Part shown: positions 8,798 through 61,600 of the stretch, one piece after another | How positions within the stretch are numbered: position 1 is the stretch's first letter | Layout: every line of letters begins with the position of its first letter | Origin: Naegleria gruberi | Taxonomy: Eukaryota | Assembly: GCA_000004985.1 (NCBI GenBank) | Contig: GG738862.1 | Strand: one strand, 5' to 3' | DNA length: 64,000 bases | Position numbers and translations under genes: made by a program | Notes under the pieces: generated by a model | What the model was told of the DNA's origin: nothing | Seen by the model: the letters and a program-made list of their open reading frames with translations, nothing else | The model's database searches: none

Positions 8798-8916
8798 AGG
8801 AGATTTTAGACATCTGACAACGTTTTGGTGTTCAATGGTTTTGGTGAAACCTTGCCACTTTGTAGTTAGGCGAGTTGTGAGTTGACTAAAATAATTTATG
8901 AAAATTACGAAAAAAA

Positions 8917-18161: not shown

Positions 18162-19651
18162 AGCACATAGACGCTAAAATTCTTGTGTTGATATAACGCT
18201 ACCATTACGTCTGTTTTTTAATTGTTGCTGGAATCAGTTTCAATGACATTCAACCCTGTTGTAAAGTTAGGTCAATAAATATTGAATGCAAAGTTATAAC
18301 AAGGATTGGTCACATGATTGAACATCAGTTTCGAATTTTCTTTCAACTCGTTGTATACAACAGTTGTTTTAATAGAAGAATATTCTATCATATCCAAAAA
18401 GTTTAGTTTCCTTCCGAATGCATCAAAAAATACCAAATCCGGAGATTCTATTACTAAAAGTAAAATTTAGTAATTTGAATTTCAAAGTTGGTGCAAAAGT
18501 TCTGAAAATCAAGTACAGTTCCCTAATCGTTGAACACTGCATCAAAATTACCTCTATTGTAAATTGTCAACCCTTTCCTGCAAATATATCAACATTGTTT
18601 AGGTTGTCTTTGATTGAAATTTTACTCCCATTCACCAAAACAATATTTTTCATTCATTGGAATGCTCTTCCTTTTCAGTTTACAAATCATCCAAACTCTC
18701 TGCTTTCAATTTGAATATTAAATCATGAAATTTGTCAATTATTAATAACTTGAAGTCTATTGAAATGCAATTCACATGAATTACCTAACAAGTTGAATTG
18801 GTAATCAGACCTGCCATGTGTTGATGGAGATAACGAGGTCTGTGTTTCTCAATATCGACATCCAAAAATTCATCTTTTCAACGTTCATAATCAACACATT
18901 CATATGAATCATAACGAATCTTTCAACATGCATCAATGAAATCCACAATTTCACTTATTTAAATATTTGAAACTTAGTTGGCATTCTGCATTCTCTTTGA
19001 ACATTAAGTGGCGTTCATGGTTTTTCAAATCCACAAACGGAAAGGAAATCTATATTCCGGTTTATCGATAAACACCAAAACACTCTTCTTGTCTCATGTG
19101 TCAGCTATTGATTTTGGTACGATCACCGCTTTATTTACATGTTCCTTCTCATGTCAACTAGAAATGTCTTTATTGATACTTTCTACAGAGCAATAATTTT
19201 GAGAGAATCTTTGTAAGAGCACAATTGAGGCCATCATGTTGACTCTTATTGGACAATCTAAACTGAAATGGTTAGTTTGATAGCTTGTTTGTGATGTGAT
19301 GCATTTTCTCTTGTGAATCACAGAGAGGAGCGAGTTGTTATTATGGTCCAAAAACGCAAAACCACAGTCCAAATGAATAAAAGCCATGAACAATGCGACT
19401 TGTTACCTCAAAACAAATCAAAACAAATAACATCACACCCTGAAGCGAGTGCTAACAACGAACAGCCTTGTTTTCCGAAGCCTTTGAAAACTTATTCTCC
19501 CCAACACCCAATAATTGCTACAGGCTGATCCATCCTAAGATAAATTCTATTAGGTGTTATCACTCTACCAATTAATTCAATCTACCCTTTTAATTTATTA
19601 TCCACTTTATCGCGAGACGTCTCTCTTACACACACAAGTCCAAAGCCTTGA

Positions 19652-21125
19652 TTGCGAGATACCAACCAACAACACCCAACCAACCTACACAACCGAATTT
19701 CCTCATCATCCAAAACAATATATTCACTAACAAAGAAAATGGTCGAAAAGAAAGCTGCTAGTCGTAAGAATTCAAACGGAAGCTCCCTCTTCACTGCTGA
19801 AGATGATCAAAAACTTATCGAAGGCTACAGAAAGTATGGTAACAACTGGAAGGACATTTCCAAAGAGTATTTTAATGGTAAATTCAAGACTAACCAATTG
19901 TTCCAACGTTATAAGAGAGTCCTTGTTGCTAAGGACAAGGAAAGTACCTGGTCAAAGAATGAAGACATTGAACTCCTTTCAGTCTATCATCACTTTGAAG
20001 GATCATGGGTTCAAATGAGCAAGAAGTATTATATTGGTATGTATTCAATTAATGTTTCAATTATTTAATGACATTTGATTAGACACAAGAACTGATAACC
20101 AACTTTCAAATAGATGGGCTAGTTTAAAGAAGAGTTGTTGTTTGATTGATACTTTTGCCAAGTTGAAACCTACTGTCAAGAAGGATCTCTACAATTTATA
20201 TAAGAAAGTTAGAAAGGCTGATGGTCCTGATGCTATTAAGAATACAAATTATACCGATATTGTCGAAATTCCAGACGATTCATTCCCAAAGATTTACCTT
20301 GGTGAAGGTAGAAAGGTTCAAAAAGAAGGATCAAAGAAGAGAAAGTCAACCAAGAAATCAACTGAAACAATTGAATCACCAAAGAAGAGAAAGTCAAATA
20401 CTAAGGATGCTTTCATAGTTGAAGAAGAAGAGGAAGAAGATAACTCATCTGTTTCTTCATCTGAAGAAGATAATACTTCTGAAGAAGCTCCACTTCGTGT
20501 TATTCCAACAAGAAGATCTCAACGTGTAAATTATTCCAAGATGCTCAGTGATGAAGAAGAAGAAGAAAAGCAATCATCACCTGAAGATGAAAAGCCTCAT
20601 CTCTCTGCAGATCAAATCCAATGGCTCAAGGCTCAAAAGTGTCCTGCCAAGAGACAATCATCATCAAGCACTGCTCCATTTACTTTTGATCTTGCTTGTG
20701 ATGAACATCTTGAAAACACTGTTACTCAACAACCACAACCAGTCCAACAACCACAACAAACTGTATCTGTACAACCATTGGCCATGCCAACCAAGCAAAT
20801 CCAATACACAGTTGTTGAAAATCATGATTTTAACTTGGACTTTAACGAAGATGAATTCCTTGAAATTGAAAGATTTATTGGTGCTCCATATAGCCACTAC
20901 GAACAAGAAAGAACCATCTCTATTGAAGATATTGTTAATCAAACAAGAAGCATTAAGGAATTTTTCGAGCAAACAAAACCAACTCCAAAGGTTGAAGAAG
21001 AACAAAATCTATTCGACTTTAATATGACAGATTTTGGTGAAGATGGTCTTGACTTGTTTGATTTCTCCAATCCTTCAAGAGCTCCAAAGTCTCCATTGTT
21101 ATTTGAAGATGGTTTGGACTTTTAA
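19652..21125 (+). CDS. Myb/SANT-domain transcription factor with acidic C-terminal region; join(19652..20036,20083..21125), intron 20037..20082 (GTATGT…AG, 46 nt). Alternative start at 19739
   Basis: Two Myb-like repeats (LFTAEDDQKLIEGYRKYGNNWKDISKEY… and WSKNEDIELLSVYHHFEGSWVQMSKKYYI|DTRTDNQLSNRWASLKK). The splice restores the conserved GRT..Q…RW…L pattern across the junction. The C-terminus is acidic with FDF motifs. Confidence 0.7.
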
Positions 21126-24471: not shown

Positions 24472-24999
24472 AATCATTACTATTTAAATAATGGTAAGAA
24501 GAATTAGAATAAACCTCATCATTTTAGTTTAATAAGGATTTAATATTCGAATCTTTTACCAAGAGAACATCAAGCTGGAACAAATCTTGTTAGGGCTCCT
24601 AATTGGATGTTATTGTTTTATTTTAATATGATGATGTTTGTTTCAATCACTCATCAGTACAGTAGTAGCAACAATTGTATACCAACAATAATTATCATTG
24701 TAATATTTAAACGTTAAACATTAATGAATAATGACACAATCAACCAATAAGAGGTCAAAAGATGCAAACATCATCACTGATTAATAACAATTAATACACC
24801 TTCAGTATTGTCAATGAGACCATGATTAGACCTTCAAGGCCATTTTCCACGGAACCATCAACTGTCTGTTGTGAAACTCATCAACTTTAAAAAAAAGTAC
24901 ATCAAGAGACAACTCACCCATTACTCTCTTGAAACTTTTCAACAAGAACAAACTACCGAAAAGAAGAGCTTTTTTCGTCTTTAATTATAATTCGAAACA

Positions 25000-27900
25000 A
25001 TGGGTAAAGACGATATTGTTTTCTTACCATCCAAAGAAGTGGTAATTAGTACAATTAAAAAGTTTCAAACAGATTCTTCACTTGAATGGATATTCTTTGC
25101 CTATCAAGAATCTGATCCATCCACAAAACTTGCCAAAGGAAACAGCAATACTATTGAATTGGCTCGTACAGGAAGTGAACCACTCGATAGAAATCAATTG
25201 CAAACTCTTCGTGATGTGACAAAGGATTCTGAAGAAAGTATCAAGGCCTACCTCTCTCCACACAGTGCCAACTACTTTATTGCTCGTATTGATGCAAATC
25301 GTTACATTTTCATTAATTGGATTGGTACAAAAACCAAGACATTACAAAAAACCAGAGTAATGACTCACAGACTTGAATTGAAATCAATGGCTGAGAAATT
25401 ATTGTCCATGTCCTTTGTTTTCGATCATAATGGAATTGATGAGTTTGACAAATTGGTTAATATTGTTGATTCTTCTCGTTCTTTTGAATTTGAAAATATG
25501 AAAGATCAAAAACAAACATCCTCTCCACGTACCACTACTACCACAACTGCTACTACTGGTGGCTCTTCTCAAGTTGCCTCTGCCTCTGCTTCTTTAAAGT
25601 CTGCTTCTTCTTCATCATCATCATCATCTAGTAATACTACTAGTGCTAGTTCTTCTTCAAGTGGTAACAATTCTGCCACTAAGGGATCCTTAATGAACAG
25701 ATACAATCCTCAAACTTTAACAGAACAAGAACAAATCAATGCTAGACGTCATCAACGTTCTGGATCCAAACCACCAAAACTTGGACTTGCTGCAATTATG
25801 CGTCAAGTGTTGAAATTGGACGAAACAAACATTACTCCACTCTTGAAACAACGTTCATTTGGTTGGTTATTGTTGGGTTATAATGCTGATGGTTTGTGTC
25901 AAGTTGAAGGTCAAGGAAATGATCAATGTACATTCCCAGATCCACTCTTTGATGCTTTGAAAGAAGATGATATGCAATATATTGTTCTTCGTTGGGTTTT
26001 ATCTGACACTGGTTATGGTGGTGATGTTGAAAAGACCTATTTCTTGTCATATGTTGGTTCTGCTGTTAATTCTGTTCGTCGTGGTAAGGTAAATCAACAC
26101 AAACAAGAAGTTTATGATTATGTTAATAAGCATTTCCAATTGGGAGGTGAAGTTACAATTACTGCTCTTGAAGAATTGAATGTTGATTACATTAAGAATG
26201 TCATGTTGGGTAATAGAAGTGCTAATACTGTTACTTTGACAGATTGGGGTACTGTTCCAGTTAAGGCATCCCCAGTTGTTGGACAAACTAGTCAACCAAA
26301 GGCAACTGCTTCTCCAATCAATTCTCCAAGAAACATCAAGAAGGAAACAGCTACTGCTTCTGTTGCTACATCATCAGTTACAACAGATGCTCCAGAAAAA
26401 CCAATCGAAAGAAAGGGAAGTGAATTGTTGAGTAAGATTAAATTGGGATTCAAGGAAGGAAAATTGAAGGGTATCAAGGGAACTACTCCTGAACCTGCTG
26501 AAGATCTTACTTCACCTAAGAATTTGAAATCTCCTGGAAGAGAACCACTTAAATCACCAGGTAGAGATGGTCTTACTTCTCCTGGAAGAAAAAAGTCAAC
26601 CAAGGGTGGTATTCTCAGTTTCTCAGCTAACAATATGGACAAATTCTCTGCTAGTTTGAAAAAGAAGGATATTGTAAAGGTTCCTAATTTGGGAACTGGT
26701 CAAAACGCCATCAAGATTGAAGACGAAACTAAGGTTATTGACAAGTTGTACGATCTCAAAGATCCACTCGATAGAAATAACCAATGGGTTTTATTCAGTT
26801 ATCCAAATGACAAGACTCTCAATATTTTATCGCTTGTTGATAGTGGTTCTGAACCAATTTCTAAATCTGTTGCTGTCACCTCTCAATTGACTGATAATGG
26901 TGTCAAGTACTTTATTCACAAGTTCTACGTTGAAAGAAATGGAAGAATTGAAGCTAAATTCAGAGTTATTATCTGGAGAGGTAAATCTATTAGAGCTTAC
27001 TTCAAGGCCATTTGTACTAACCATGCCATGAAGTTGGTCACTACTATTGCTCCTGTCATTACTCAAGTTGAAGGTGATCCAATTATTTTGACTGATGTTG
27101 CTGAAGTTCCAAATGTTGTCTTATCATTGGAAGGTTTTGGTACTCCACTCGATCATGATTCTGCCATTAAGAAATTGGAAGAAAAATTGGCTGCTGCTGA
27201 ACAACGTGAAAAGCAAAAGGAAACTTCATCACCATCCAATAAGATCCAACACGAAAAGAGAGTGTCAATGAAGAAGGCTGATTACAATGCAGGTATTGAA
27301 GCTGGTTTGAAGATTTTGAACGAAGAAGAATTGATTCAAAGAATGAAGGAATTGCAAAGTGATGAAAGTGCCGTTTCCTGGGTCACCATTAGTTATAAGG
27401 ATTCCAAGACTTTGCAACTTGATGGATATGGTTCTGGAACTGCTGAATCATTCAAATCCAAGTTTACTGATGATAAGGTTTACTACACATTGTACAAACA
27501 ATTCTTGGAAGAATTGGGTGGTGCTCCAAAGACTATTCTCATTGCTTGGGTTGGTCAAGATGTCAAGCCAATGGCCAAGGCCTCTACTACTCCTCATCGT
27601 ATTGCTCTCTTCAAGTATTGCTTACGTCACGTCACTTTATCTAGTGAATATCAACCAATCACTATCAATGATTTGGATAATGATTCAATCTTTGGTAAGG
27701 TTTCTGGTGGAAGCAAGAGTGGATCAAGTGGTGTTGTTTCTAAATCATTTGGTGGTAAGAGTCAATCCCTTACACTCGCTGATGAGAATATCATTCTCGA
27801 ACAAGTTAAGGATTTGAATTCTGATGCCACTGCCACAAACTGGGTCAAGCTAGGATATAATGAATCTGGACATTTGAAATATGAAGAAAAGGGACAAGGT

Positions 27901-29859
27901 GGTTTGGCTGAATTTGAACGTCGTCTCTCTGATGATTCTGTAAATTATGTACTTTACAAGACCTATGTTGAACACAGTCCAAAGATTACTTTGATTACAT
28001 GGGTCGGTTCTGGTGTCACTGCTGGTACTGCCAAGGCAAGAGCTACCACACATCAACTTGAATTGGAAGCTTTCGTTAAGAAGGTCTTCACTGTTGCTGC
28101 TTTATATCAAGCTTTAGAAAGAGAAGAATTGAAGGAAGAATTAATCTACAAGAAGGTTGCTGGTTCCAACATTATTATCGCTCCAACTGCTGTCTCAAAG
28201 GGTACATTTGGTGGTAGAGATTCTAGTTTGAAATTCGATAATGATCAAGCTGTTCTTGATGCTTTCAAGGAATTGAGAGGAAATTCTGGAATCAGATGGT
28301 TGCTTTTCGAATATGTTCCTGGAAATCAATACACTGTTCGTGTTTCTCAAATCGGTAAGGGAGGTGTCAGAAACTTCAAACAATACCTCACTGATAACGT
28401 TGTTTGCTATGTTGTCATGCGTTTGACATTTATGGAATATTCAGATGTTGCCAAGGCTATTGTCATTACATGGGTTGGTGAAAATGCTCAAAGTTTCCAA
28501 AAAGCCCTCTCAGGTGGTCATAGAATCAACTTGTACGATTTCACTAGAAAGCAAATCTCAGTTGGTGGTGAATATCAACCTGAAAGTCTTGAAAGCTTGT
28601 CTGATGAAGATTTGCTTTCCAAGATTACTGGTACTAAGAGTGATAATGCTGGTGATGCTTTAGAAGAAAAGATTCAACAACAACGTGCCTTTGAAAGAGA
28701 ACGTATTGTGCAAGTTCAACCAACTATTGAAGTTAAGGATTCCAAGCAATATATTGGTGAATTTAAGGATATTGATTTTAATGGAAAGGAAGAAATCAAG
28801 AAGGCCTTGTTAGAACTTTCTGAAAAGTGTAGAAAGGAACAACATGATAGAGCTCTTGAAGATGCCACCATTCACTACATTAAGATGAAGTTGACTGGTA
28901 AGGAATTACGTGATGTAGTCATTGAATCTACTGGAGATGGTGCATTGAGTGAAGAATGGAGAGCTACTCATCTCGATTCAAAGGAATTCCTTCTCTTCAT
29001 CTTTGGTTTGTTCACATCTGAAGGTGGTTATGGTATGATGACCAAGTATGTCTTTGTTCAATGGACAGGACATGATACCAAGCACTTGTTGAAGGCCAAG
29101 GCCAGTGAAATCAGACAATCCATCTACAATTTCTGTAATAAGGAGTTGAACATGTCTGGCGAAATTCAAGGTTGCACTAAACCAGAACACATTACCAAGA
29201 AGTTGGTTTTGGAAAAGATTACCGGTTCAAACGTTCGTGGTAGTGAAATGAGATTGGAAAAGAAGGACAAGAAATTCGAAGGCTTGGGTAAGGAAAAGAA
29301 GAGTAAACTTGTCATCAAAGACCAAGAAACATTGAATCACTACGTTGAAGATATGATTCTCCAAGATTACCTCGAAAAAGATGAGGATAAGAAGGACGAT
29401 GATGATCCAGAAGAATGGAGAAATCACAAGAGAATTACTAAAGGTAAACTTGATTGGATCTTGTTGAGCTATTCCAAGGATTCCATTGATGAAATCAACG
29501 TTACTGCTCATGGTGAAGGTGACGTTCAAGCTTTTAAACAACACTTGAAACCAGATAGTGTCAACTTTGTAATTATCAGAGTTTTCCACGCTCAAGGTTA
29601 TGCAAAGGATATTTCCATGTTGACCGATAATAGAATCAACCTTGCCAAGCCATACTTTACTCTCATCTATTGGAAGGGAGAAAATGTTCAAGTTTTAGAA
29701 AAGGCTCTCACTTCTCATCACTTTAATGCATTCCACAAGTTGATGACTCAAAAATTCATGAGAATGAAATCATCACTCCAAGGTTCAACTTATCAAGCTG
29801 AAACTTATGAAGAATTGGACATGGAACGTATTAAGAAATTGATGAGATTGTATGATTAA
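25000..29859 (+). CDS. Giant actin-binding-type protein composed of about 8 tandem ADF-H (coactosin/drebrin-like) domains, 1619 aa, single exon
   Basis: Repeated about 130-aa modules, each with a W(V/L)LxxY start, GxGG(L/V)xE(F/L) centre and a (I/L)xW(V/T)GxxV…(K/H) tail, as in coactosin (e.g. WVKLGYNESGHLKYEEKGQGGLAEFERRL…ITLITWVGSGVTAGTAKARATTHQ). Ser/Thr-rich linkers separate the modules. Confidence 0.85.
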   Translation: MGKDDIVFLPSKEVVISTIKKFQTDSSLEWIFFAYQESDPSTKLAKGNSNTIELARTGSEPLDRNQLQTLRDVTKDSEESIKAYLSPHSANYFIARIDANRYIFINWIGTKTKTLQKTRVMTHRLELKSMAEKLLSMSFVFDHNGIDEFDKLVNIVDSSRSFEFENMKDQKQTSSPRTTTTTTATTGGSSQVASASASLKSASSSSSSSSSNTTSASSSSSGNNSATKGSLMNRYNPQTLTEQEQINARRHQRSGSKPPKLGLAAIMRQVLKLDETNITPLLKQRSFGWLLLGYNADGLCQVEGQGNDQCTFPDPLFDALKEDDMQYIVLRWVLSDTGYGGDVEKTYFLSYVGSAVNSVRRGKVNQHKQEVYDYVNKHFQLGGEVTITALEELNVDYIKNVMLGNRSANTVTLTDWGTVPVKASPVVGQTSQPKATASPINSPRNIKKETATASVATSSVTTDAPEKPIERKGSELLSKIKLGFKEGKLKGIKGTTPEPAEDLTSPKNLKSPGREPLKSPGRDGLTSPGRKKSTKGGILSFSANNMDKFSASLKKKDIVKVPNLGTGQNAIKIEDETKVIDKLYDLKDPLDRNNQWVLFSYPNDKTLNILSLVDSGSEPISKSVAVTSQLTDNGVKYFIHKFYVERNGRIEAKFRVIIWRGKSIRAYFKAICTNHAMKLVTTIAPVITQVEGDPIILTDVAEVPNVVLSLEGFGTPLDHDSAIKKLEEKLAAAEQREKQKETSSPSNKIQHEKRVSMKKADYNAGIEAGLKILNEEELIQRMKELQSDESAVSWVTISYKDSKTLQLDGYGSGTAESFKSKFTDDKVYYTLYKQFLEELGGAPKTILIAWVGQDVKPMAKASTTPHRIALFKYCLRHVTLSSEYQPITINDLDNDSIFGKVSGGSKSGSSGVVSKSFGGKSQSLTLADENIILEQVKDLNSDATATNWVKLGYNESGHLKYEEKGQGGLAEFERRLSDDSVNYVLYKTYVEHSPKITLITWVGSGVTAGTAKARATTHQLELEAFVKKVFTVAALYQALEREELKEELIYKKVAGSNIIIAPTAVSKGTFGGRDSSLKFDNDQAVLDAFKELRGNSGIRWLLFEYVPGNQYTVRVSQIGKGGVRNFKQYLTDNVVCYVVMRLTFMEYSDVAKAIVITWVGENAQSFQKALSGGHRINLYDFTRKQISVGGEYQPESLESLSDEDLLSKITGTKSDNAGDALEEKIQQQRAFERERIVQVQPTIEVKDSKQYIGEFKDIDFNGKEEIKKALLELSEKCRKEQHDRALEDATIHYIKMKLTGKELRDVVIESTGDGALSEEWRATHLDSKEFLLFIFGLFTSEGGYGMMTKYVFVQWTGHDTKHLLKAKASEIRQSIYNFCNKELNMSGEIQGCTKPEHITKKLVLEKITGSNVRGSEMRLEKKDKKFEGLGKEKKSKLVIKDQETLNHYVEDMILQDYLEKDEDKKDDDDPEEWRNHKRITKGKLDWILLSYSKDSIDEINVTAHGEGDVQAFKQHLKPDSVNFVIIRVFHAQGYAKDISMLTDNRINLAKPYFTLIYWKGENVQVLEKALTSHHFNAFHKLMTQKFMRMKSSLQGSTYQAETYEELDMERIKKLMRLYD

Positions 29860-32566: not shown

Positions 32567-32579
32567 ATATCTACAGATT

Positions 32580-33245
32580 TCAAAATCCACTACCACCACC
32601 AAAATTAAAACCACTACCGTTACTTGGTTTAATTGGTGGTTTAGTTCCAAATGTAGTACTAGTACTTCCAAAAGCAAATCCAGTAGTAGGTTTAGTTTCC
32701 ACATTTTCCAAATATTTCGAAATCAATTGTTGATGGGACTTTGAAATCAATTCAGTCAATCCATCCATACTGTAATATCTTGCCTCAACAAACAAACTCT
32801 CCAAAGCATGATTATCACTAGGAAGCACAAAATTCTTCACATCACCTCCACTTCTCAAATAATTCAAAATATATCTGAAATAAGTTGGATCTCTATCAAT
32901 AAAAATTGATTCATCAGCCGAATCTTTGATTAAATTATGTAAACCAGAGACAAGTGAATTGAAATAATTTGGATCATAGTGCGTATTTTCTAATGATTTT
33001 GAAGGTTTGATCAATTTTTGAGTTAAAGTTTCTTTGGAAACTGCAAAAATAACGCCTCCAACGTTTAGTTTAATTATTTCACCATCTTGGAATTCGTATT
33101 TGGTGGAAACTTTTTTCAATTCAAGGAATTCGTGTTCTCTCTTTGTCATGGAAGTGCTCCAAGAGGAAAGTTTTTCTTCTAGTTGTTTCATAGTTTCCGA
33201 AATATCTTGTTTGATGGTGTCAAAAGTATTCTCAGAGTTGTTCAT
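32580..33245 (-). CDS. BTB/POZ (KCTD/T1-type) domain protein with C-terminal FG-repeat tail
   Basis: BTB signature IIKLNVGGVIFAVSKETL…IFIDRDPTYFRYILNYLRSG. C-terminus GFAFGSTSTTFGTKP…GFNFGGGSGF. The stop lies 13 bp from the stop of the convergent gene at 32566. Confidence 0.75.
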   Translation of the reverse strand: MNNSENTFDTIKQDISETMKQLEEKLSSWSTSMTKREHEFLELKKVSTKYEFQDGEIIKLNVGGVIFAVSKETLTQKLIKPSKSLENTHYDPNYFNSLVSGLHNLIKDSADESIFIDRDPTYFRYILNYLRSGGDVKNFVLPSDNHALESLFVEARYYSMDGLTELISKSHQQLISKYLENVETKPTTGFAFGSTSTTFGTKPPIKPSNGSGFNFGGGSGF

Positions 33246-33415
33246 TTTTTTTGATTAGTTTCGAATTCCACGAAACCATTCCAATAATTTAATAATCCAA
33301 TTTATTATTTGTTTTGTCATCTCGTATTTACCTGGTCTGTAACCAAAACATTTAGATGAAGTAGGTTATTGTCCATTTCTCAACTGATTTAACAAAAAGA
33401 AGTTAATTTGAAAAA

Positions 33416-36700: not shown

Positions 36701-38138
36701 AATATCATCTTTACCTTAACTCTAATTTCTGTAATTAATCCAATGTTTTTAATTGTGGTTGTTCCAATTGGTTTTGCATTTTACATAATTCAAGAATATT
36801 ATAGGACTACATCAAGAGAACTTAGAAGATTGGAATCGATTTCAAAGAGTCCTGTAATGTCACATTTCAATTCTTGTCTGGAAGGCGTCAATACTGTCAA
36901 GGCATCTCTTGTACATTCGAATATTTATGAGGATAGTTTTAACAAGATTGACTTTGCAAATAAGCATACCTTTAACAGATTTATGGTGAACAGATGGTTG
37001 GGTGTTAGAATCCATCTCAGTAAGTATTTTCACATTAACATTATTGCTCATCTTCACAGTTTCTCAATCTGTTTTGTTTTTTACTGCTATCTTTGCTATC
37101 ATTGCCAAACATACTCAAGAAATTAGTAGCCCAGCTTTCCTTGTATTGACCATTTCAAACTCTCTTCAGTTGAGTGATTGTTTCCAATCACTAGTTCGTT
37201 CGTTTGTTGAAGTTGAAAGTAACATGACTTGCGTGGAGAGAATTGTGTACTATGCTCAAAGTATCCCACAAGAAGCTGCCTACGATAAAGAAGGTGATCC
37301 AACCACAAGAGAATGGCCAACTAAGGGACACATTCAATTAGATCAATTGTCGGTAAGATACAGAGATGATTTGGATCCAGTTTTGAAGAATCTCGATTTG
37401 GATATCAAAGCAGGCACCAAAGTTGGTGTTGTAGGAAGGTATGTTTGAATATTTCTAACTTTCAAAATTAATATATAACATGAATATAGAACTGGAAGTG
37501 GAAAGAGTACTTTATTGATTTCTCTATTCAGATTCCTTGAAGCCAATGAAGGTAGCATCTCAATCGATGGTCTAGATATTTCCAATATTGGTTTGAGAAC
37601 TTTACGTAAAGCATTATTAATCATTCCTCAACAACCTGTTCTATTCTCTGGATCTATTCGATACAATTTGGATCCTTTCGATGAATTTGAGGATTATGAA
37701 ATATGGAATGCCCTCGAACGAGTTCATATGAAAGAAAAGATTCAACCACTCCAACTCTCCTTCACTGTTACTGAGAATGGAAGCAATTTTTCAATTGGTG
37801 AAAGACAATTACTCTCCCTTAGTAGATGTATTTTGAGGAAGGCAAATATTATCATCTTTGATGAATCCACTGCCTTTGTAGATCATAATAGTGATGAGTT
37901 GGTTCAGAAGGTTGTTAGGGAGGAATTTAAGGATAGTACAATCATAACCGTTGCTCACAGATTGGACACCATCATTGATTCGGATTGTATTGTATTTATG
38001 AAGGAGGGTGAAATTATAGAAACTGGAAGTCCAAAGGAATTACTCTTAGATGAAAGATCGAATTTCTCCTCTCTTGTGAGGGAAACTGGTAAACAATACT
38101 CTGACCACTTGAAGAACAAAGCTTTCAAGCTTGCTTAA
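33775..38138 (+). CDS. ABCC (MRP-type) ABC transporter, multi-exon. Resolved introns 37020..37059 (40 nt) and 37439..37489 (51 nt); N-terminal exon structure unresolved (frame change near 34680-34760); candidate starts 33775 or 33940
   Basis: TMD1 segment (ILNGIRIVKFYVFEDKM…). NBD1 has Walker A GNTGSGKST, signature LSGGQKHRISLAR and Walker B IVLMDS. TMD2 is present. NBD2 Walker A GVVGRTGSGKST is reconstructed across the GTATGT intron, followed by ABC signature and Walker B (IIIFDEST). Confidence 0.75.
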
Positions 38139-38812
38139 TAATTTTTTAAATAAACCACAATTCGAAAGATGCAATTTTCATGAAACCTCACAACAACTAA
38201 GGAATTAAGGTGAACAACAACGAGAGATAAGGGAACAATACAGCAAAATACCATCCATTGAACGGACAGAGCCACCATTCAGATGACTGTTTCCTGTTCA
38301 TTCTCTCGTTTCATCTGAGGAAGTGGCCTGTCTTTTAGTATCTTTTTTCATGACCAAACTGTGATTGAAGAGGACTGCTAGCTAATGAATTTTGGGTTCA
38401 TCATTTCGAAAAAGAATGTGCTTAGTGGAAAAACATGATAGTTGAACTTGGCTTTACAACGTAAACTTATTTATCCATTTGAGGATCTCTTAATTTCCAA
38501 ACAATTTTCCCAAAATTGCCTCATAAATTATCAACCTATCATCCCTCATCTTGAAATTATTGAAATATTTTAAGCCAATGATTGTTTTAAGTTGTTTACA
38601 TGTTAGAGTACTGTAACGTAAACTTGTAACAAGATTTTGTGCGCATTCCACTACATTCTTCAGAGGTCACTACCGATACTGCTTCTTGTTCACACCAGGG
38701 ATGATATCGAGGATTTTGTTGAGTTTTTCACAAACACAACAACAGAAAAAAACGAACAAATTGAGGATTTGAGGATCTTTGATAACAATTTTGAAGAGTA
38801 ATATATAGCAAG

Positions 38813-40349
38813 ATGAGTGATATTGCAAGCGATTTTGAAACTGTACCAGAACCATACAAGATTAAGGTAGTAGAACCAATTAAATTAATTGCAAGACAGG
38901 AGAGAGAAGTTGCCATTAAGGAAGCTGGCCTCAATCAATTCTTATTAAAATCTGATGATGTTTTCATTGACTTATTAACGGACAGGTAAGTGGTATTATC
39001 TTGTTTCAAACCTATATAAAATCGGAACTTATTCAACTTTATCAATTTGTTACAGTGGTACAGGTGCAATGAGTCAAAACCAGTGGGCTGGGATGATGCT
39101 TGGTGATGAATCATACACTGGAAGGTTTGTTTTCATTTTCTTCTTTTAACCAAATGATGTAATAATAACTATTAATACATAATATGTAATCAGCCGTAAT
39201 TATTATAATCTCCAAAAGAGTGTGGAAGATATCTTGGGATTTAAATACTATTGTCCAACCCATCAAGGAAGAGGTGCTGAAAATATCTTGTTTGGTATCA
39301 TCATTAAGAAGGGTCAATATATTCTCGGAAATTATCACTTTGATACTACAAAGGCACATATTGAATTGAATTCTGGTTTGGCTGTCAATTTAATTCATGA
39401 AAGAGCTTATAACACATCTGTTGAACATCCATTTAAGGGAAATATTGATCTTGAAAAGTTGGAACACTTTATTGTGGAAAAGACTCCAGAAAAGATTGCA
39501 TTCTTGTTAATGACCATCACTTGTAATAGTGTTGGTGGTCAACCTGTTTCAATGGAAAATCTTCGTGGTGCCTATCAAGTTGCAAAGAAGTATAATTTAC
39601 CAATCTTTATTGATGCTGCTCGTTTTGCAGAGAATGCTTACTTTATTAAGAAGAGAGAAGCAGGTTATGAAAATAAGACAATTACAGAAATTGTTTGAGA
39701 AATGTTCTCATACAGTGATGGTTGTACAATGAGTGCCAAGAAGGATGGTCTTGTCAATATTGGTGGTATGATTGGTATTAAGGAGGATGAAGAATTATTC
39801 AAAAAGGTTAAACAAAGATGTGTTCCAATGGAAGGTTTCCCAACTTATGGTGGTTTGGCTGGCAGAGATATGGAAGCTTTGGCAATTGGTATGAGAGAAG
39901 TTGTAGATGAAGCTTATTTGGCTTCTCGTATCGATCAAGTTGAATATTTGGGAAGAAAGTTGAAAGAAGCTGGCATTCCTATTCAACAACCGTTGGGAGG
40001 TCATGCAGTTTTCATCAATGCTAAAGAATTCTTGCCTCACATTCCTCAAACTCAATATCCAGCTCAAGCTCTCTGTGTGGAATTGTATCTTGAGGGTGGT
40101 GTTAGAGCTGTTGAAGTGGGAACTTTATTGGCAGGTAGAGATCCAGAAACTGGTTTGGAAATTTTACCTGAACTCGATCTTTTACGTTTGACAATACCAA
40201 GAAGAGTTTATACAAATAATCACATGGATTGGGTTGCCACTTGCTTGAAGAGAATTGCTGCCAGAAAGGACAGGATTAGAGGGTTGAAGATTGTTGAAGA
40301 ACCACCAATTTTACGTCACTTTATGGCAAGATTTGATTGGGCAGAATAA
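38813..40349 (+). CDS. tnaA-like: Tryptophanase (tryptophan indole-lyase, beta-eliminating lyase family); exons 38813..38985, 39056..39124 and 39194..40349; introns 38986..39055 (GTAAGT, 70 nt) and 39125..39193 (GTTTGT, 69 nt). In-frame TGA at 39696..39698
   Basis: The protein is collinear with bacterial TnaA: …FIDLLTDSGTGA…, THQGRGAEN, and [12 protein letters not shown] containing the PLP lysine. Introns have correct phase. A single TGA splits two same-frame ORFs (…[13 protein letters not shown]…) and aligns to a conserved Arg (E. coli ITRETYKYAD). Confidence 0.8.
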
Positions 40350-40723
40350 ATTATTTTTATTTTGTAAAGTTAATATAATATTTAAGATTAACAGACGAAC
40401 ATTCGACAATGTAGCTACCATTGAATCCATTCAAACAAACAAAAAAATGAGCGTGAATATATAAAATGGTCGACCAATTTTCTATTGAATTGTATGATTG
40501 GAATAGATTCTCCAAGAATGTAAGTACACGATTAGTTTCGAATAATTAAATGTGAAATGAAATGCAGGTATTGCTCGATAGAACTGCTTTGATTTTTAAA
40601 CCTTATGATGTCACTCCAAAAGAAAACACTTGGATTGGGATGAAAGTGGAAAAGTGGAAGATCTGATTCCACAACTGAATAAACCCAGATCAAACCAAAA
40701 CCATAACTTCTCTCAAAACTTCT

Positions 40724-40795
40724 GCTGACGGACGGGATCGAACCGGCGACCAATGGCTTATTAGACCAACGCTCTACCGACTGAGCTACGCCAGC
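40724..40795 (-). tRNA. tRNA-Ile(AAU)
   Basis: Reverse complement GCTGGCGTAGCTCAGTCGGTAGAGCGTTGGTCTAATAAGCCATTGGTCGCCGGTTCGATCCCGTCCGTCAGC folds as a cloverleaf with anticodon loop CTAATAA, TTCGATC T-loop and discriminator A. One mismatch in each of the anticodon and T stems. Confidence 0.75.
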
Positions 40796-40872
40796 TTATT
40801 GATAATAATTGGTTTTAATAATTCTGTAAATGATGCTATGTCATTTGACATTTTAAATATATAACTCAAATT

Positions 40873-40986
40873 GAAATTGTTCTCAATAAAATGTAGGGTT
40901 TGTTTAGAAATTGTTCTCAATAAAATGTAACATAACGTAGCTCTTTCAACGTTAAAATTATTAAATACCAACTGAGCTACGCCAGC
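40873..40986. repeat. Two 23-bp tandem copies GAAATTGTTCTCAATAAAATGTA (40873..40895, 40907..40929) plus a 20-nt duplicate of the tRNA-Ile 5' end (40967..40986), all just upstream of tRNA-Ile
   Basis: Exact direct repeats 34 bp apart. ACCAACTGAGCTACGCCAGC is the reverse complement of the first 20 nt of the tRNA with one mismatch. Confidence 0.7.
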
Positions 40987-41134
40987 TTCTAGAAGACCCT
41001 TAATGAACTTAGCAAATACCTTACCATGGTGGACAAGCTAAAAGTACTATTTTTGAACATTTTGGTAAATTGTGGTTGGTTCTCTTCTAACATGAATACA
41101 GAAGATGTCACATCTCTTTAGAACATCATAAAAC

Positions 41135-42553
41135 TTGACAAGAAAAAATAAGCAAACAAAGCAGATCTGCAAGATTTTGAAAATTAATTTCGGCGGAACT
41201 ATTCATCAAAAAAACATGGAGAAAAAACTCGAGTCTCTCCAACGAGAAGAAATATTTTCAGATGATATTTGTTTTGAAATAATTTCCATGATTGATGATT
41301 CGTGGTTTATTTTGAATAATTGTTCCTTGATTTCAAAACAATTCTTTAATGTGATCAAGGAACGTTCAAAACTTTTTATTGAATTTAAAAAAAAATTTAC
41401 AGAAAAAAGAATTGAACTATTCACAAAGAGTCAATTTATGAATAGTATTGTTAAAGTTAAATTTTCAACAAATTTGTTTGTCTCTATTGAAAATCACAAA
41501 TTCATAAGTGAAATGAAACAATTAACTTCACTTAATATTTCTAACAATCAAATTAATGATGAAACAGCCAAATCAATAATTGAAATGAAACGATTAACAT
41601 CACTTGATATTGGTGGAAATCAAATTGGTGATGAAGGAATCAAATTAATTAGTGAAATGAAACAATTAACATTACTTGATATTAGTGGAAATAGTATTGG
41701 TGATAAAGGAGTCAAACCAATTAGTAAAATGAAACAATTAACATCACTTAATATTTATAACAACGAAATTGGTGTAGCAGGATCCAAATTTATAATTGAA
41801 ATGAAACAATTAACATCACTTGATATAAGCTACAATGAAATTGGTGATGAAGGAGCCAAATCAATAAGTGAATTGAAACAATTAACATCACTTACTGTTA
41901 GTGGAAATCAAATTGGTGATGAAGGAATCAAATTAATTAGTGAAATGAAACAATTAACATTACTTGATATTAGTGGAAATAGTATTGGTGATAAAGGAGT
42001 CAAACCAATTAGTAAAATGAAACAATTAACATCACTTAATATTTATAACAACGAAATTGGTGTAGCAGGATCCAAATTTATAATTGAAATGAAACAATTA
42101 ACATCACTTGATATAAGCTACAATGAAATTGGTGATGAAGGAGCCAAATCAATAAGTGAAATGAAACAATTAACATCACTTACTATTAGTGGAAATCAAA
42201 TTGGTGATGAAGGAATCAAATTAATTAGTGAAATGAAACAATTAACATTACTTGATATTAGTGGAAAATCAGTTGGTGATAAAGGAGTCAAATCAATTAG
42301 TAAAATGAAACAATTAACATCACTTACTATTTATACCAATGAAATTGGTGTAGCAGGAGCCAAATTTATAAGTGAAATGAAACAATTAACATCACTTGAT
42401 ATAAGCTACAATGAAATTGGTGATGAAGGAGCAAAATCAATAAGTGAATTGAAACAATTAACATTACTTGATATTAGTGGAAATGGAATTGGTGATGAAG
42501 GATCCAAATTTATAATTGGAATGAAACAATTAAAATCACTTGATATTCAGTAG
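41135..42553 (+). CDS. F-box-like / RNI-type LRR protein (paralog B, 472 aa; alternative start 41216)
   Basis: N-terminal EIFSDDICFEIISMI motif, then about 16 repeats of a 24-aa LRR (MKQLTSLDISGNQIGDEGAKSISE). Confidence 0.7.
   Translation: MTRKNKQTKQICKILKINFGGTIHQKNMEKKLESLQREEIFSDDICFEIISMIDDSWFILNNCSLISKQFFNVIKERSKLFIEFKKKFTEKRIELFTKSQFMNSIVKVKFSTNLFVSIENHKFISEMKQLTSLNISNNQINDETAKSIIEMKRLTSLDIGGNQIGDEGIKLISEMKQLTLLDISGNSIGDKGVKPISKMKQLTSLNIYNNEIGVAGSKFIIEMKQLTSLDISYNEIGDEGAKSISELKQLTSLTVSGNQIGDEGIKLISEMKQLTLLDISGNSIGDKGVKPISKMKQLTSLNIYNNEIGVAGSKFIIEMKQLTSLDISYNEIGDEGAKSISEMKQLTSLTISGNQIGDEGIKLISEMKQLTLLDISGKSVGDKGVKSISKMKQLTSLTIYTNEIGVAGAKFISEMKQLTSLDISYNEIGDEGAKSISELKQLTLLDISGNGIGDEGSKFIIGMKQLKSLDIQ
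41627..42490 (+). repeat. Higher-order tandem repeat inside the LRR gene: three 288-bp units (4 LRRs each) at 41627..41914, 41915..42202 and 42203..42490. The first two are about 98% identical
   Basis: GGTGATGAAGGAATCAAATTAATTAGTG… recurs at exactly 288-bp spacing, with only a few substitutions between units 1 and 2. The 72-bp sub-period corresponds to one LRR. Confidence 0.8.
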
Positions 42554-44148: not shown

Positions 44149-44363
44149 TCAATTCCAATTAAGAAAATTCTTCTTAGATCGGAGCAAAATATAAATTTTA
44201 ATTTTAATTAATATTTTAAAAAATGTTGTATTAACAACTTCATCCATCTACCAAATCATCATCACGAATAACAAAATAAATCATCAAAAACAGATATTCT
44301 TTACCTTCATGAAAAACACTAAACCATCATCAATCCTTCTAGTATGGGATTAGCATTTAAAAA

Positions 44364-45446
44364 ATGGGCAATAATCAAACCACTTCTCACAGATCCCTTC
44401 CTACCGAGCATGCATCTTTCTCCAATTCTTCTCGCGAATATGCCAATCAATACATAATGATCGCAGGTGGTCCATCAGTAGTAATTTATCAAGGCTTGGT
44501 TGATCAAATAATTTCTATCGAAAATCGAATAGAAAATGCTGCTAATTATGAGAAGGTAAAGAGTGAATGTCTGAAAGGTATTCAGCAACGTTTGGTGAAA
44601 TATTTCCCTGTTCATTTTCATGATACAGTTTCGGAAAAGATAGAAGAACAATTGGTTGACCTGTGGCATAGCCCCAATTTTAAAGAGGAATACTTTGCGA
44701 ATAGATTCCAGGTAGATCCATACTTGGTCTTGCCAACTGTATTTAATAATTTGGAGAGAGGAATCAAATTTAATTTGAAAAGAACTTGCTTGTTCCAACC
44801 AGCAGGTAGACAATATTATTTCACAACATGCTATTCGAAAACAACTGATAATTTTCCACACAGCCGTAATCAAAAGTTGACATTTGAATTATTTGCTAAT
44901 TGTTTTTCTGCTGATACTTGGGCTGATGTAGTTGGAGCATCATTTTCTCTATCTGACTATGATAACAATCAATATTTAGATGAATTTTATCAAGTGTGTA
45001 GAAGATTGTCTGGATTTTCTACATACAGAATGATTTTAATATTTACTCATCTTGATGTTCTCAATGAAAAGATAAAGTTGGGACTAATTAACTATGGAGG
45101 AGATAAAGATATAGAAATTCGAAAAGAATTCAATCATATTCCAAAAGAATGTGCTCTCATCATTGAATATCTCATCAAAGAAGCCAAAAAAAATATAGAA
45201 ATGAATCCAAGCCATGACTTTCCCAATAGGACATTGGAATACCACATTGTAAATACATCAAGTGACAGTGATATGAAAGAATTATTGGATTGTATTTGTA
45301 TTGGAGCAAATTCTAAGAGAAAATGCTTCATATCCTCTAAAATTGAAATGCCACCTTTCTCATATCCTAACACCAGATTCAAGAGCAACATGCACAGAAC
45401 CTCAGAACTAAATCAGTTTTGTGATATTGCAATATTGCTAAATTGA
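44364..45446 (+). CDS. Hypothetical protein with N-myristoylation-type start (MGNNQT); possibly a degenerate Gα-like pseudo-GTPase
   Basis: Begins MGxxxT. Has weak Gα-like remnants (IMIAGGPSVV in place of the P-loop, TTCYSKTTD, MILIFTHLDVLNEKIK) and no intact GKS P-loop. Family assignment is speculative. Confidence 0.5.
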   Translation: MGNNQTTSHRSLPTEHASFSNSSREYANQYIMIAGGPSVVIYQGLVDQIISIENRIENAANYEKVKSECLKGIQQRLVKYFPVHFHDTVSEKIEEQLVDLWHSPNFKEEYFANRFQVDPYLVLPTVFNNLERGIKFNLKRTCLFQPAGRQYYFTTCYSKTTDNFPHSRNQKLTFELFANCFSADTWADVVGASFSLSDYDNNQYLDEFYQVCRRLSGFSTYRMILIFTHLDVLNEKIKLGLINYGGDKDIEIRKEFNHIPKECALIIEYLIKEAKKNIEMNPSHDFPNRTLEYHIVNTSSDSDMKELLDCICIGANSKRKCFISSKIEMPPFSYPNTRFKSNMHRTSELNQFCDIAILLN

Positions 45447-45492
45447 CTTTAGTTTTCCATTTCCTAAAGGTCAGAACTCTTCAAAATAAAAA

Positions 45493-51698: not shown

Positions 51699-52999
51699 AT
51701 GATCAACAGTAGTTGTTGGTTGGTAGCTGTTTTGTTGATGTTGTGCCTCGTCTCAACTGCAACATGTGCTATTGCCTTGGCTGGTAATAAGAGAGCTGCT
51801 CCATCAACTGCTATGTGTACTCGTTACACTTCTGCATCATTGGTTGGAGATGTTGATTTGAGTAAGGTCACTCCAAAGCCTGTTAACTGTCCTTTGGGAT
51901 GTAATTTGTATACTGTTTCTGGCTCTGCATTGGGTTATAATGGTCCACTTGGGGCTTTGGGGTATGTTGTGTAGCTTTTATGATTTGTTTTACTATTTAT
52001 CAAACATTTTCATTATCATGATCAATCAGTCCTTTGGGTCCTTTGGGTCCTGTTTCCACTGGTACCCCTTACAATGTTCCTGATAATTTTGTTTGGTATG
52101 GAAATAACTTTAATACTTACCTTAAGGAAATGAATGCATGTGATAAGTTATTGAGCCATCCACAAAATCCACTCTCTTCTGCTGGCCCAATGGGTGATGC
52201 TTTCTTTGATGTCATGCCAAAGATTAACGATTTCACTAAACACATGATGGGTAAGTTGTTAAATAGTATTTGAATGCTAATAGGAATATTTCAATACGAA
52301 ATGTTGATGAAACCATTATTATATATTTACAAATTTTACACATTAAAAGGTATGGGAGTTTGGACTGTTTTGGGACCATTGGGACCTTTGGGCCCACTTG
52401 GTGCTTTGGGACCATTGGGTCCAGTTGGTTGCCACATGTTGGACGTTGATAAGGATGGTCAATTCGTCAGTAAGAAGGGTGAAGTTTTGAGAACTACCTC
52501 AGTTGTTTATAACTCGTCCCTCACTGTTAACTGGCCTCTTTTCGAAAGATATAAGAGTAGAGAATTCGTTGACAAATTGTCCAAGAAGGGTTTGCTCGAC
52601 ACTTCTTTCATGGTTTCTGCTAGTGTTGATATTACTGGTCATGCCTATGACATGGTTGTTACTGAACCTCAATACGTCACTGTCACTGTTATCCCAACTC
52701 TCTGGGCTAAGAACTTCTTCTTGGAAGCTTTCATTAACGGTAAATCTGTTATGAAGTCTGAAAAGCTCTTATTCACTCCTTGGTTCCAAGTCCACATTTC
52801 TGGAGCTGATTTGCAAAATGCTGGTCCAGGTGGAGCTAAATTGAAGGTTGTCATTAAGACTGATCCTCTCGATTGTGGAATGATGTCTGTCTTTGGATGT
52901 ACTATGGATTACACAATGCATGTTGTTGGTTCAACTTCATTCATGATGAGAAAGCCACACCTCAGTTACACTGGTCCACATATTAAGCAATGTGAATAA
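51699..52999 (+). CDS. Secreted protein with two short collagen-like Gly-X-Y tracts; join(51699..51961,52030..52250,52350..52999), introns 51962..52029 (GTATGT, 68 nt) and 52251..52349 (GTAAGT, 99 nt)
   Basis: Signal peptide MINSSCWLVAVLLMLCLVSTATCA. After splicing, exon 1/2 gives GPLGALGPLGPLGPV and exon 3 gives GPLGPLGPLGALGPLGPVG, with Gly every third residue. A roughly 190-aa C-terminal globular domain follows. Splice phases are consistent. Confidence 0.65.
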
Positions 53000-58539: not shown

Positions 58540-58617
58540 ATTTTTGATAATTAATTATGATTACAATCTCTTTATTGGTGGTGTAACCTTGAAAAAGATT
58601 GAAAAAATCAGCAACAC

Positions 58618-61600
58618 ATGACTGCAAACATCAACAAGCTTCAGTGCTGGCGGTCTTACTTGTTGATTCTTCTCTCTGTTATCCTTCTCGTTGGTGATGC
58701 ATCACCATTATCTTCATCAGCCCACTCAACATATGTTCGCTATCAGTTTGAAACTCTTGCCGGAAACCTTCAACCAGTTTTTTCTCTGTCATTCAAACAA
58801 ATTCAACAATCCAAAGTCAATCCTGATATTCTCTTCATAGTGTCTGCAAGTGATTCTCTTTACAAGTACAATCAAACAAGTGGAGAAAGGAACCTACTGG
58901 TCGGATGTGATGTGTTATCCTATAACTTGTGCATTAAAGAATCAATGGTAACCAACATTTCCCATCTGGCAACATCTGTTTCTATCTACATTACTGGATT
59001 TCATGTGATGGTTTCTTCTAATGAACAAGTAATTTATATTAGCACCGACCATCAATTGTTTCGAATGGAAAATAAGAATATTACACTCCTTTCGGCAATG
59101 TGGTCGACTAGTGATGAAAATCCAAACTTGGATGGAATGCATATTTCGGATAGTTGGTTTAGGTTTTTAAAATCAGTTGTTGTTGATGAAGATGAGAAGA
59201 CTTTATATCTTGCAGATGGACAAGTTATTAGAAAGTTGGATGTGGAAACTGGTATTTTAAAGTCCATCACAACAACAGGAGATGACCCAGTATCTAAGTT
59301 TGATGGACCTGCCAATCAGACTGTTCTTAAACTGCCACAAAAACTACTCCTTCATAATGGATTTCTTTATGGAAATGATGCATTTTCACTTTTTAAAATT
59401 AATATTCAAAGTGGATGGTTGACAGTAATAACTGGCACGATCAATTATATATTAGGTGTTAATTTTCCAGCTCCAAAATCAGGTGATAATGCTAAAAATT
59501 CAACACTTTTATCAATTCGTGGATTTCACATTATGGAGGATGATTCCATTCTAATAATTTCTGGAAATACTTTTTATCAGATCGATCAAAAAAGTGGATT
59601 ACTAACTATACTTTACAATTTTGAAGAAGCTATCTTTTTGGCAACACCCAATTTGGTATTTTCATTACAAAAGGTTTACAAATTAAATAGATTGAATTGG
59701 TCTATGGAAACAATTATAGATTCACATATTGGGGCCATTACGGATGGTTCAATAGCAAAGAATAGAAAATTCTTTGACATTTCAGCACTGACAATGAACG
59801 AAACCACTGGGGATTTACTATTTTCTGATTCATTGTCAAATTACAATCTTTACAAAGTTGATAAGGATGGAAGGTTTTTCACAGTGAATTTACAAATGTC
59901 AAACGTATCTTGTTGGAATTCCTCTATCAGAACTGATAGCTCTTTAACATTCAATCCAGTCTCTTTCCAATTGAGAAACTCTACTTTATATGTTGCCAAT
60001 TCTGGAATGCACAGTTCAATCCAAAAATTTGATCTATCTCAACAAGGATCAAGTTGCTTCTATTCAGGATCAATTTCAAGTGATAGACTTTTGCAACAAG
60101 GGAGTGGACTATCCATGTTGGTTAATAACCCTACTGGATTATATTGTAATATCAATTCTGACGAGATATTTGTTGCCGACACTGAAAACCACAGAATTCT
60201 CAAATATATTTCACATAATCTAGTTCAAGTAATTGCAGGTACTGGAAAGCAAGGTTTTTCAGGAGATGGTGGCTTAGCCATTCATGCTCAACTGAATAGA
60301 CCTCACTCAATTTCCTACGATCGTTCCAATAGAGATCTTTACATTGCAGGTATGTCATTCATTTTCATTATTTTAACATTCATAAAGATTCTGGAAATCA
60401 CAGAATTCGAAAGATTTCTTCTGATGGAACTATTTCTACAATTTTAGGAACTGGCTCGGGTGGATTTAATGGAGATGGTCTCCCTCCATTACAAACGCAA
60501 ATTAATTTCCCTAAAGGTGTTACTTACTCACCCTTTCTGGGAATTGCAATTTCTGATACCTATAACCATAGAGTGAGATTATTTAGAGAAGGAAATGTGA
60601 GCACAATATTGGGAACTGGAACATCTGGAATGAAAGTAGTGGAGGATAATCCAACAGAGACAGAGATTATTTCACCTTTTGGTCTGGTTTGGGCTGAATC
60701 AACTTCATCCCTTTACATAGCTGGTAAGTTTCGAATTTTAGTCGAACATTGACAAATTGTTTCAGATCAATTCAATCACAGAATATTACATCTCCAATAT
60801 CTATATGGTAGTGTAGCAATCATTGCAGGAACCAATTTACCTGGATATAATGGAGATGGCATGAAAGCTAACTTAGCCAAACTATTTCTTCCAAGTTCTG
60901 TAGTTTTGGCTCCTGACAATACAATTCTAATTGCAGACACTTACAATAATTTAATAAGGAAAATTAGTAATGGAATAATTTCTTCATTTGAAACAAAAAT
61001 TGGTCTTGGTCAATCCTATCAAATCAAACAACCGATTGGGTTGTGTTTAACATTATCTGGACCTTTTGTGACAACTGAAAATGCCGTTACCTCATTAAGT
61101 TCAGGCTATACCTCCAACATAATTGGAGGAAATGGAGATGGAATGAATGTTTATTATGCAGATGTTAATCCAACAAGAATGATACTCTCTCCATTTGGAA
61201 ATGAAGGATCAATGATATTTTCAGAATCGAATTCGAATAGAATAAGATATGTCGACAGTAATGGAATCATTTCAACCATTGTTGGTTGTGGAGTATTTGG
61301 ATATATGGGTGATAAATATCCTTCTCAATTTGCCTTTCTTGCTTCACCTACTGGTATAGCACTGAATCCAATAACAAATGATTTAATTTTCTGCGATACC
61401 TCCAATAATCGTATTAGAATAGCTTCTATAAATGAATTAAACGTAGTTGATACGATTGCTGGAACAGGAAATAGCGCATATGATTCAGAAGTATCAGATC
61501 CCTTACTCTCACCACTCAATAAGCCAAGAGTGGTTGCCACATTTAGCAATGGTGACATTGTCATTGGAGACACTTTAAATAATCTATTCAAGATGATTTC

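Follow-up and report, generated by a model that had tools for sequence, protein, structure and literature searches.

What does a single in-frame TGA mean in an otherwise well-kept gene? The question is raised by a bacterial-type tryptophanase gene of Naegleria gruberi, which lies at positions 38813-40349 of a 64,000-nucleotide (nt) stretch of contig GG738862.1 (assembly GCA_000004985.1), below called the window. The codon could be a mutation, an error in the assembly, part of an intron or a recoded sense codon. We favour, with moderate confidence, a real and recent nonsense allele, i.e. a nascent pseudogene, in NEG-M. In the public protein model of the same locus the TGA is not visible, as a 36-nt segment that contains it is taken out as an intron. 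Judging from the comparisons below, this intron is most likely a patch by which the gene predictor held the frame open.

The reading frame and its internal stop

The gene is on the plus strand and has three exons and two introns, Table 1. The original prediction had the coordinates exactly right, and its two phase-consistent GT-AG introns of about 70 nt are borne out by the motifs that splicing restores. Removal of intron 1 gives back the invariant family motif DLLTDSGTGAMS (junction DLLTDS/GTGAMS), and removal of intron 2 the invariant Y-x-G-S-R-N motif (junction YTGS/RNYY). The spliced coding sequence is 1398 nt long, i.e. 465 codons plus a stop, and contains neither a frameshift nor a second internal stop. 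The TGA at codon 249 is, as had been claimed, the only internal stop in the frame. A functional tryptophanase gene, whose enzyme turns tryptophan into indole, pyruvate and NH3, should have an uninterrupted frame, and this one is broken at that codon.

The best database match is N. gruberi NAEGRDRAFT_66340 (XP_002678275.1, EFC45531.1, UniProt D2VBU7), a "predicted protein" of 453 residues that the original prediction had missed. It is 100% identical to the translation of the window at all aligned residues, save for a 12-residue gap. The public model describes the same locus and agrees in the start, in both N-terminal introns and in the TAA stop, but it treats the 12 codons of 39664-39699, among them the TGA, as an intron, whereas the colinear reading has 465 codons and a premature stop. 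Because the public model splices around the stop, the annotators' assembly must have had the same TGA. Both the gene and its descent from bacteria were public before, and Naegleria has been placed in a published tnaA tree (PMC8537960); what is added here is that the reference protein model is probably artefactual. The practical value is a warning, as the 12-residue deletion in XP_002678275.1 / D2VBU7 hides a premature stop. Phylogenies or metabolic reconstructions (e.g. of indole production) that use the N. gruberi "tryptophanase" should consider that the copy in the reference strain may be null. Overall this is a curation-level finding, a known gene with an ordinary kind of lesion, and it matters little beyond curation.

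To characterise the protein we used its 120 best matches, i.e. the public N. gruberi model and 119 others; all column and conservation counts refer to these 119 homologues. The 36-nt segment is colinear with bacterial coding sequence. Its 11 residues agree with the homologue majority at nine positions, and not one of the 119 homologues has a gap in the 12 columns of the segment. Since it is colinear and never gapped, the segment is ancestral coding sequence and cannot be an old intron.

The age of the stop can be judged from the constraint on the rest of the protein. Among the 160 residues that are conserved in at least 97% of the homologues, N. gruberi keeps 157, which is within the bacterial range, and the three changes are A to T, Y to F and D to N. 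The closest homologue is 79% identical before the stop and 82% identical after it. The distance to the outgroup is 0.448 for the whole protein, compared with 0.418 +/- 0.022 in the sister bacteria, and 0.444 for the residues after the stop, compared with 0.433 +/- 0.027. The signs of a pseudogene amount to one nonsense codon, with no extra lesions and no acceleration. There is no sign of relaxed constraint; therefore purifying selection has acted essentially to the present, and the TGA, if it is real, must be very recent. If this is a pseudogene, it is on these comparisons an extremely young one. A very recent pseudogene, and an allele or sequencing error, were among the candidates proposed originally, and with a single lesion and no sign of relaxed constraint these are the two that survive.

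The original prediction further had the stop aligned with a conserved Arg, and took a change from CGA to TGA to be the probable cause. Neither point is borne out in full. The column is variable, with R66/K36/L9/H4/Q2/V1/M1 in the 119 homologues and no Cys or Trp, and with R7/L5/K1 in 13 sister sequences, the closest of which has Leu. In the solved structures it is occupied by His in tyrosine phenol-lyase (TPL) and by Phe in the Proteus tryptophanase. The gene encodes Arg by AGA 17 times, by CGT six times, by AGG once and never by CGA. As CGA is not used and AGA is used 17 times, the path from CGA is not favoured. The single-step sources of the TGA are AGA, CGA or TTA, and AGA and TTA are at least as likely as CGA.

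The product itself belongs, by its profile matches, to the TnaA-type, pyridoxal phosphate (PLP)-dependent beta-eliminating lyases, i.e. it is a tryptophanase, as had been proposed. The NCBIfam "tryptophanase" profile NF009709 matches residues 7-463 of 465 with 729.1 bits (cut-off 285), PF01212 Beta_elim_lyase is precomputed for the public 453-residue model, and along its whole length the protein is 81% identical to the best bacterial homologue. The stricter equivalog cut-offs are missed, both for tryptophanase (TIGR02617, 634.3 bits vs 825.8, and NF053783, 635.8 bits vs 750) and for TPL (TIGR02618, 632.4 bits vs 720.7). This is a subclade effect and not decay, because sister sequences from the Bacillota are equally distant; within the family, the Naegleria protein falls in another subclade than proteobacterial TnaA and TPL.

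Solved TPL and tryptophanase structures are matched over the full length with E-values from 1e-144 to 1e-166, without gaps around the active site. The DAARF (D221, R224) and SAKKD (K264) motifs are encoded and fall in invariant columns of the alignment, and the PLP-lysine motif aligns with those of the solved 1AX4 (tryptophanase) and 1C7G (TPL), SAKKD/SGKKD. We take the second Lys of SAKKD to be the PLP-binding residue, from E. coli K270 and TPL K257. The specificity positions are tryptophanase-like, with the Asp of HFDTT and the His of LRHF as in Proteus 1AX4, while the TPL 1C7G has YFTTT and LRFF. According to the published enzymology, these two residues (E. coli D137 and H463, against Thr124 and Phe448 in TPL) determine the substrate specificity. 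The solved tryptophanases of Proteus vulgaris (1AX4) and E. coli (2OQX) have in common with the Naegleria protein the FDTT Asp, the RHF His, DAARF and SAKKD. The solved TPLs (1C7G, 2TPL) also match over the full length, but have Thr and Phe at both specificity positions.

Explanations for the stop codon

In the reading that we favour, one very recent base substitution (AGA, CGA or TTA to TGA) in the NEG-M haplotype would have turned codon 249 into an ordinary stop. We infer that the TGA is a true mutation and not a base-call error, and that termination occurs there. Under the standard code translation would end after residue 248, and the truncated product, without K264, the C-terminal domain and the specificity His, would be catalytically dead. 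Exon-junction-dependent mRNA decay would not be triggered here, because both introns are upstream of the stop. The copy would then be a nonsense allele and nascent pseudogene, and it may be heterozygous. A heterozygous null allele is plausible, since mainly heterozygous diploidy has been described for Naegleria (PMC9928731). If the stop is real, a long-domesticated lateral gene has been caught at the first step of its loss, perhaps in a laboratory strain under axenic culture.

Three observations weigh against a nonsense allele. An erroneous base call or consensus in the one draft assembly accounts for these data just as well. The lack of relaxed constraint together with host-like codon bias (AAG 24 : AAA 7) is the pattern of an intact and expressed gene. 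Finally, introns of 33-51 nt exist in the window, so that a length of 36 nt alone is no bar to the annotated intron.

The first two points lead to a sequencing or consensus error, which we regard as possible although rather unlikely. The true NEG-M gene would then have an Arg or Leu codon at position 249 and would be an ordinary, intact tryptophanase acquired by horizontal gene transfer. A single lesion in a gene with 157 of 160 near-invariant residues, whose C-terminal half is as conserved as its N-terminal half, is what such an error would produce, and the biased, host-like codon usage is typical of an expressed gene. The base has never been cross-checked, as the 2023 pangenome study used only one N. 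gruberi genome, NEG-M (PMC9928731), and an independent copy was found in none of the collections searched. RNA-seq data of N. gruberi exist (PRJEB23822, PMC6142364). When the intact protein was looked up by exact match, with codon 249 read as R, L, W, C, G or S, only the public 453-residue model was returned, and look-ups of the 248-residue N-terminal product and of several C- and N-terminal fragments of the open reading frame (ORF) gave no match besides this model. A homology search with the 216 C-terminal residues returned only bacterial fragments at 68% identity or less, and it missed the public N. gruberi model, so it is unreliable here. There was no match either when metagenome contigs were scanned for the exact pattern around the stop, when two neighbouring genes were looked up for independent genomic contigs, or when the literature was searched for the locus identifiers.

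Substitution errors are, on the other hand, rare in a finished-consensus Sanger assembly, and we would expect a stop in this gene from such an error with a probability of about 1e-3 or less. This is a rough estimate, and a weak argument since real nonsense alleles are also rare. The assembly behind the public model had the same TGA, although it is probably the same assembly and not an independent one.

The annotated intron might also be what it seems, i.e. 39664-39699 might be a genuine micro-intron, either old or newly arisen after the nonsense mutation, whose splicing gives the 453-residue XP_002678275.1. We consider this improbable. The segment starts with GT and ends with AG, keeps the frame, is treated as an intron in the public gene model, and its 36 nt fall within the local length range of 33-110 nt. 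However, it departs from the splice-site consensus and it is coding rather than non-coding in character.

We compared the segment with the nine credible introns found in the window, which are 33, 42, 46, 51, 68, 69, 70, 98 and 110 nt long. The genome-wide mean intron length quoted in the literature is 203 nt, and the short local introns are far below it. An attempt to exclude the 36-nt intron by its length alone failed, as the 33-, 42-, 46- and 51-nt introns are credible and removal of the last three restores protein motifs, Table 1. All four have GTAAGT or GTATGT as donor and YAG as acceptor. The case against it therefore rests on the splice sites, on the conservation of the coding sequence and on chance bracketing. 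The donor GTTATG differs from the local GTA(A/T)GT at positions +3, +5 and +6, and 8 of the 9 local introns start with GTA(A/T)GT or GTTTGT; the remaining one also has a donor outside GTNNGT (GTATTG), a point in favour of the micro-intron. The acceptor is GAG, while the base at -3 is C or T in each of the nine local introns. In addition, it is easy to find such a pair by chance: a random host codon is bracketed by an in-frame GT...AG within 36 nt in 31% of cases and within 120 nt in 94%, and seven in-frame pairs enclose the stop at codon 249. The match of nine residues to the homologue majority and the complete lack of gaps in 119 homologues count against the micro-intron as well.

The effect of the deletion can be judged from the AlphaFold2 model of the closest bacterial homologue (predicted local distance difference test score, pLDDT, 83.6). 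In this model the 12 residues form a loop and the first six residues of a 10-residue helix, and this helix leads into the strand that carries the PLP lysine. Splicing would, according to the model, remove the loop and more than half of the helix directly before that strand. In the more specific variant of this idea, a real nonsense mutation is rescued by the splicing of 39664-39699, i.e. a new micro-intron has formed by "intronization" of formerly coding sequence. This we hold to be slightly more doubtful still. A true micro-intron would add to the few documented cases of intronization, as an intron gain caught in the act in a gene of bacterial origin.

To return to the stop as a nonsense codon, this reading assumes that TGA is a stop in this genome. 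We examined nine long ORFs of the window, delimited by TAA and TAG only, which together have 21,783 nt or about 7,260 codons (1622, 1038, 848, 814, 655, 500, 473 and 424 codons, and 887 codons at 60768-63428, the latter being the part of a 1032-codon ORF downstream of its intron). None of the nine contains a TGA. The other mid-ORF TGA that was checked, at 60750, is inside the clean 42-nt intron at 60724-60765 (GTAAGT...TTTCAG). At least three neighbouring ORFs (7892-8806, 32574-33254 on the minus strand and 44361-45449) end with a TGA that is 2-4 codons ahead of the next TAA or TAG, and TGA appears to be the terminator of these genes. The standard code is, by these counts, in use and TGA is not a sense codon here, so a variant code with a sense UGA was rejected on the TGA-free neighbours and the TGA at ORF ends.

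Selenocysteine was rejected on three negative tests for a selenocysteine insertion sequence (SECIS) and on the lack of Cys in the aligned column of the 119 homologues. At E<=10 the region 38000-42000 had no match to the Rfam SECIS models, in 39699-40800 a custom search for the core motif and helix of a SECIS gave 0 matches, and folding of the 3' flank against shuffled sequences revealed no unusual structure (z=+0.8). There is also no tRNA with a UCA or another stop-reading anticodon in the window, a weak argument as the window has just two tRNA genes. A purine at +4 after UGA favours termination and UGA-CUAG is a known readthrough motif; the context here is UGA-G, which is not known to promote readthrough, and the motif is not present.

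Programmed recoding of the UGA, be it selenocysteine insertion, efficient readthrough or a UGA-sense code, was one of the original candidates and is highly unlikely in view of the TGA-free neighbours, the absent SECIS and the lack of Cys or Trp in the homologues, even though N. gruberi reportedly has selenoprotein machinery and a readthrough product would probably be active given that the column tolerates R/K/L/H/Q/V/M.

Bacterial origin and domestication

All 119 homologues are bacterial, with 64-81% identity, and N. gruberi is the only eukaryote among the best 120 matches. The closest group consists of 13 sequences at 75-81% identity, including Anoxybacter fermentans (Halanaerobiales, Bacillota), and the rest are at 71% or less. 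In neighbour-joining trees N. gruberi groups with this Anoxybacter-like clade in 100 out of 100 bootstraps, while the 13 sister sequences are monophyletic without N. gruberi in just 16 out of 100, i.e. N. gruberi is nested inside the clade. According to these trees the gene was acquired from an Anoxybacter-like bacterium (Halanaerobiales, Bacillota). The earlier reading as a bacterial-type gene in a eukaryotic genome agrees with this, and taken as a whole the original prediction stands for the lateral gene, the introns, the host codons and the TGA, and is not supported for the conserved Arg, the CGA path and the recoding.

The TnaA proteins of Anoxybacter fermentans and related bacteria share the full length and the same catalytic and specificity residues with the Naegleria protein at the identities given above. 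Their genes, however, have no introns, no internal stop, a GC content of 42-48% and a different codon usage, and are located in a conserved Hsp33-tnaA-AcrB neighbourhood. The relative synonymous codon usage of the Naegleria gene correlates with that of nine long host ORFs at r=0.91, compared with 0.39 for the Anoxybacter gene, in line with the host-like codon usage noted earlier. The GC content at third codon positions is 0.27 in the gene and 0.28 in the host. The gene is fully ameliorated, with a codon usage entirely like that of the host, and it has been resident long enough to acquire this usage as well as its two spliceosomal introns. The introns, the eukaryotic neighbours and a codon usage like that of the host led us to reject contamination with bacterial DNA.

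Among eukaryotes tryptophanase is considered a rarity that was obtained by lateral transfer (PMC6759080). Several anaerobic protists (Trichomonas, Entamoeba, Mastigamoeba, Blastocystis, Pygsuia and Monocercomonoides) likewise have a bacterial-type nuclear TnaA that is attributed to lateral transfer (PMC6759080, PMC8537960). N. gruberi differs from them in its way of life, as it is a free-living aerobe or microaerophile and not a gut anaerobe. As no other eukaryote is found among the best 120 matches, the comparison suggests that N. gruberi acquired its tryptophanase separately from the TnaA genes of other protists. If the TGA is an error, the locus is simply an ordinary intact gene of this kind.

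The surroundings of the gene

The neighbours of the gene are eukaryotic, of a kind typical for N. gruberi, and include an ABC transporter, RNI-type leucine-rich repeat (LRR) proteins, a BTB protein, a five-domain ADF/cofilin protein and RNase H2A. The features of the gene, the segment annotated as an intron, the tRNA genes and the introns used for comparison are listed in Table 1.

Table 1. Features of the tryptophanase locus and of the rest of the window. In the columns: the feature, its position in the window, the strand, and a description; a slash marks an exon-intron boundary.
Feature	Position	Strand	Description
Exon 1	38813..38985	+	173 nt, from ATG at 38813 to ...LLTD-S; aligns from residue 1 with XP_002678275.1 and bacterial TnaA
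Intron 1	38986..39055	+	70 nt, phase 2, CAG/GTAAGT...TTACAG/T, 27% GC
Exon 2	39056..39124	+	69 nt
Intron 2	39125..39193	+	69 nt, phase 2, AAG/GTTTGT...AATCAG/C, 20% GC
Exon 3	39194..40349	+	1156 nt, TAA stop at 40347-40349; holds the catalytic core and the internal TGA
36-nt in-frame GT...AG segment	39664..39699	+	CAG/GTTATG...TTTGAG/AA, phase 1; 11 residues and a stop; intron in the public model
In-frame TGA	39696..39698	+	codon 249 of 465; the PLP-binding Lys codon follows 15 codons downstream
PLP (Schiff-base) Lys264 codon	39741..39743	+	SAKKD motif, downstream of the premature stop; read from sequence and alignment
tRNA-Ile(AAU)	40723..40795	-	eukaryote-type; 374 nt downstream of the gene; ARAGORN, Rfam tRNA 59.9 bits; bounds the space for a 3' untranslated region (UTR) or SECIS
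tRNA-Gln(UUG)	18090-18162	-	eukaryote-type
33-nt intron	52251-52283		GTAAGT or GTATGT donor, YAG acceptor; in frame, contains TGA
42-nt intron	60724-60765		in frame, contains TGA; removal restores the NHL-repeat motif LYIADQFNHRI
46-nt intron	20037-20082		removal restores a Myb motif (...NRW)
51-nt intron	37439-37489		in the ABC transporter; removal restores the Walker A motif GVVGRTGSGKS
110-nt intron	6343-6452		RNase H2A gene; non-GTNNGT donor, GAG/GTATTG...AAATAG/GA; removal restores DEAGRGPVLGP

The space from the tryptophanase stop to tRNA-Ile may hold a small two-exon ORF of about 50 residues at 40467-40677 on the plus strand (MVDQFSIELYDWNRFSKN/VLLDRTALIF...KWKI, ending with TGA), which has no Pfam match. 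If it is real, about 117 nt are left for the 3' UTR of the tryptophanase gene.

Some of the other genes in the window have unusual architectures. The ADF/cofilin protein is encoded by a single ORF of 1622 codons at 24991-29856 on the plus strand; it is unusually large and has five Pfam Cofilin_ADF matches (E 3e-86) separated by Ser/Thr-rich linkers. A large multi-exon gene at 58555-63428, also on the plus strand, has NHL-type repeats (DxxNHRI), several EGF-like repeats rich in Cys, a transmembrane segment and, at the C terminus, a protein-kinase domain, an architecture that is receptor-kinase-like. F-box-like/RNI-type LRR proteins with near-identical 24-residue repeats (ISEMKQLTSLDISGNxIGDEGAK) are found at 41132-42550, 7892-8806 and 11683-13182, all on the plus strand, and this family has apparently expanded locally. 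Finally, the plus-strand ORF at 51941-52996 contains short collagen-like GPLGPLGPLGALGPLGPVG runs that flank the putative 33-nt intron.

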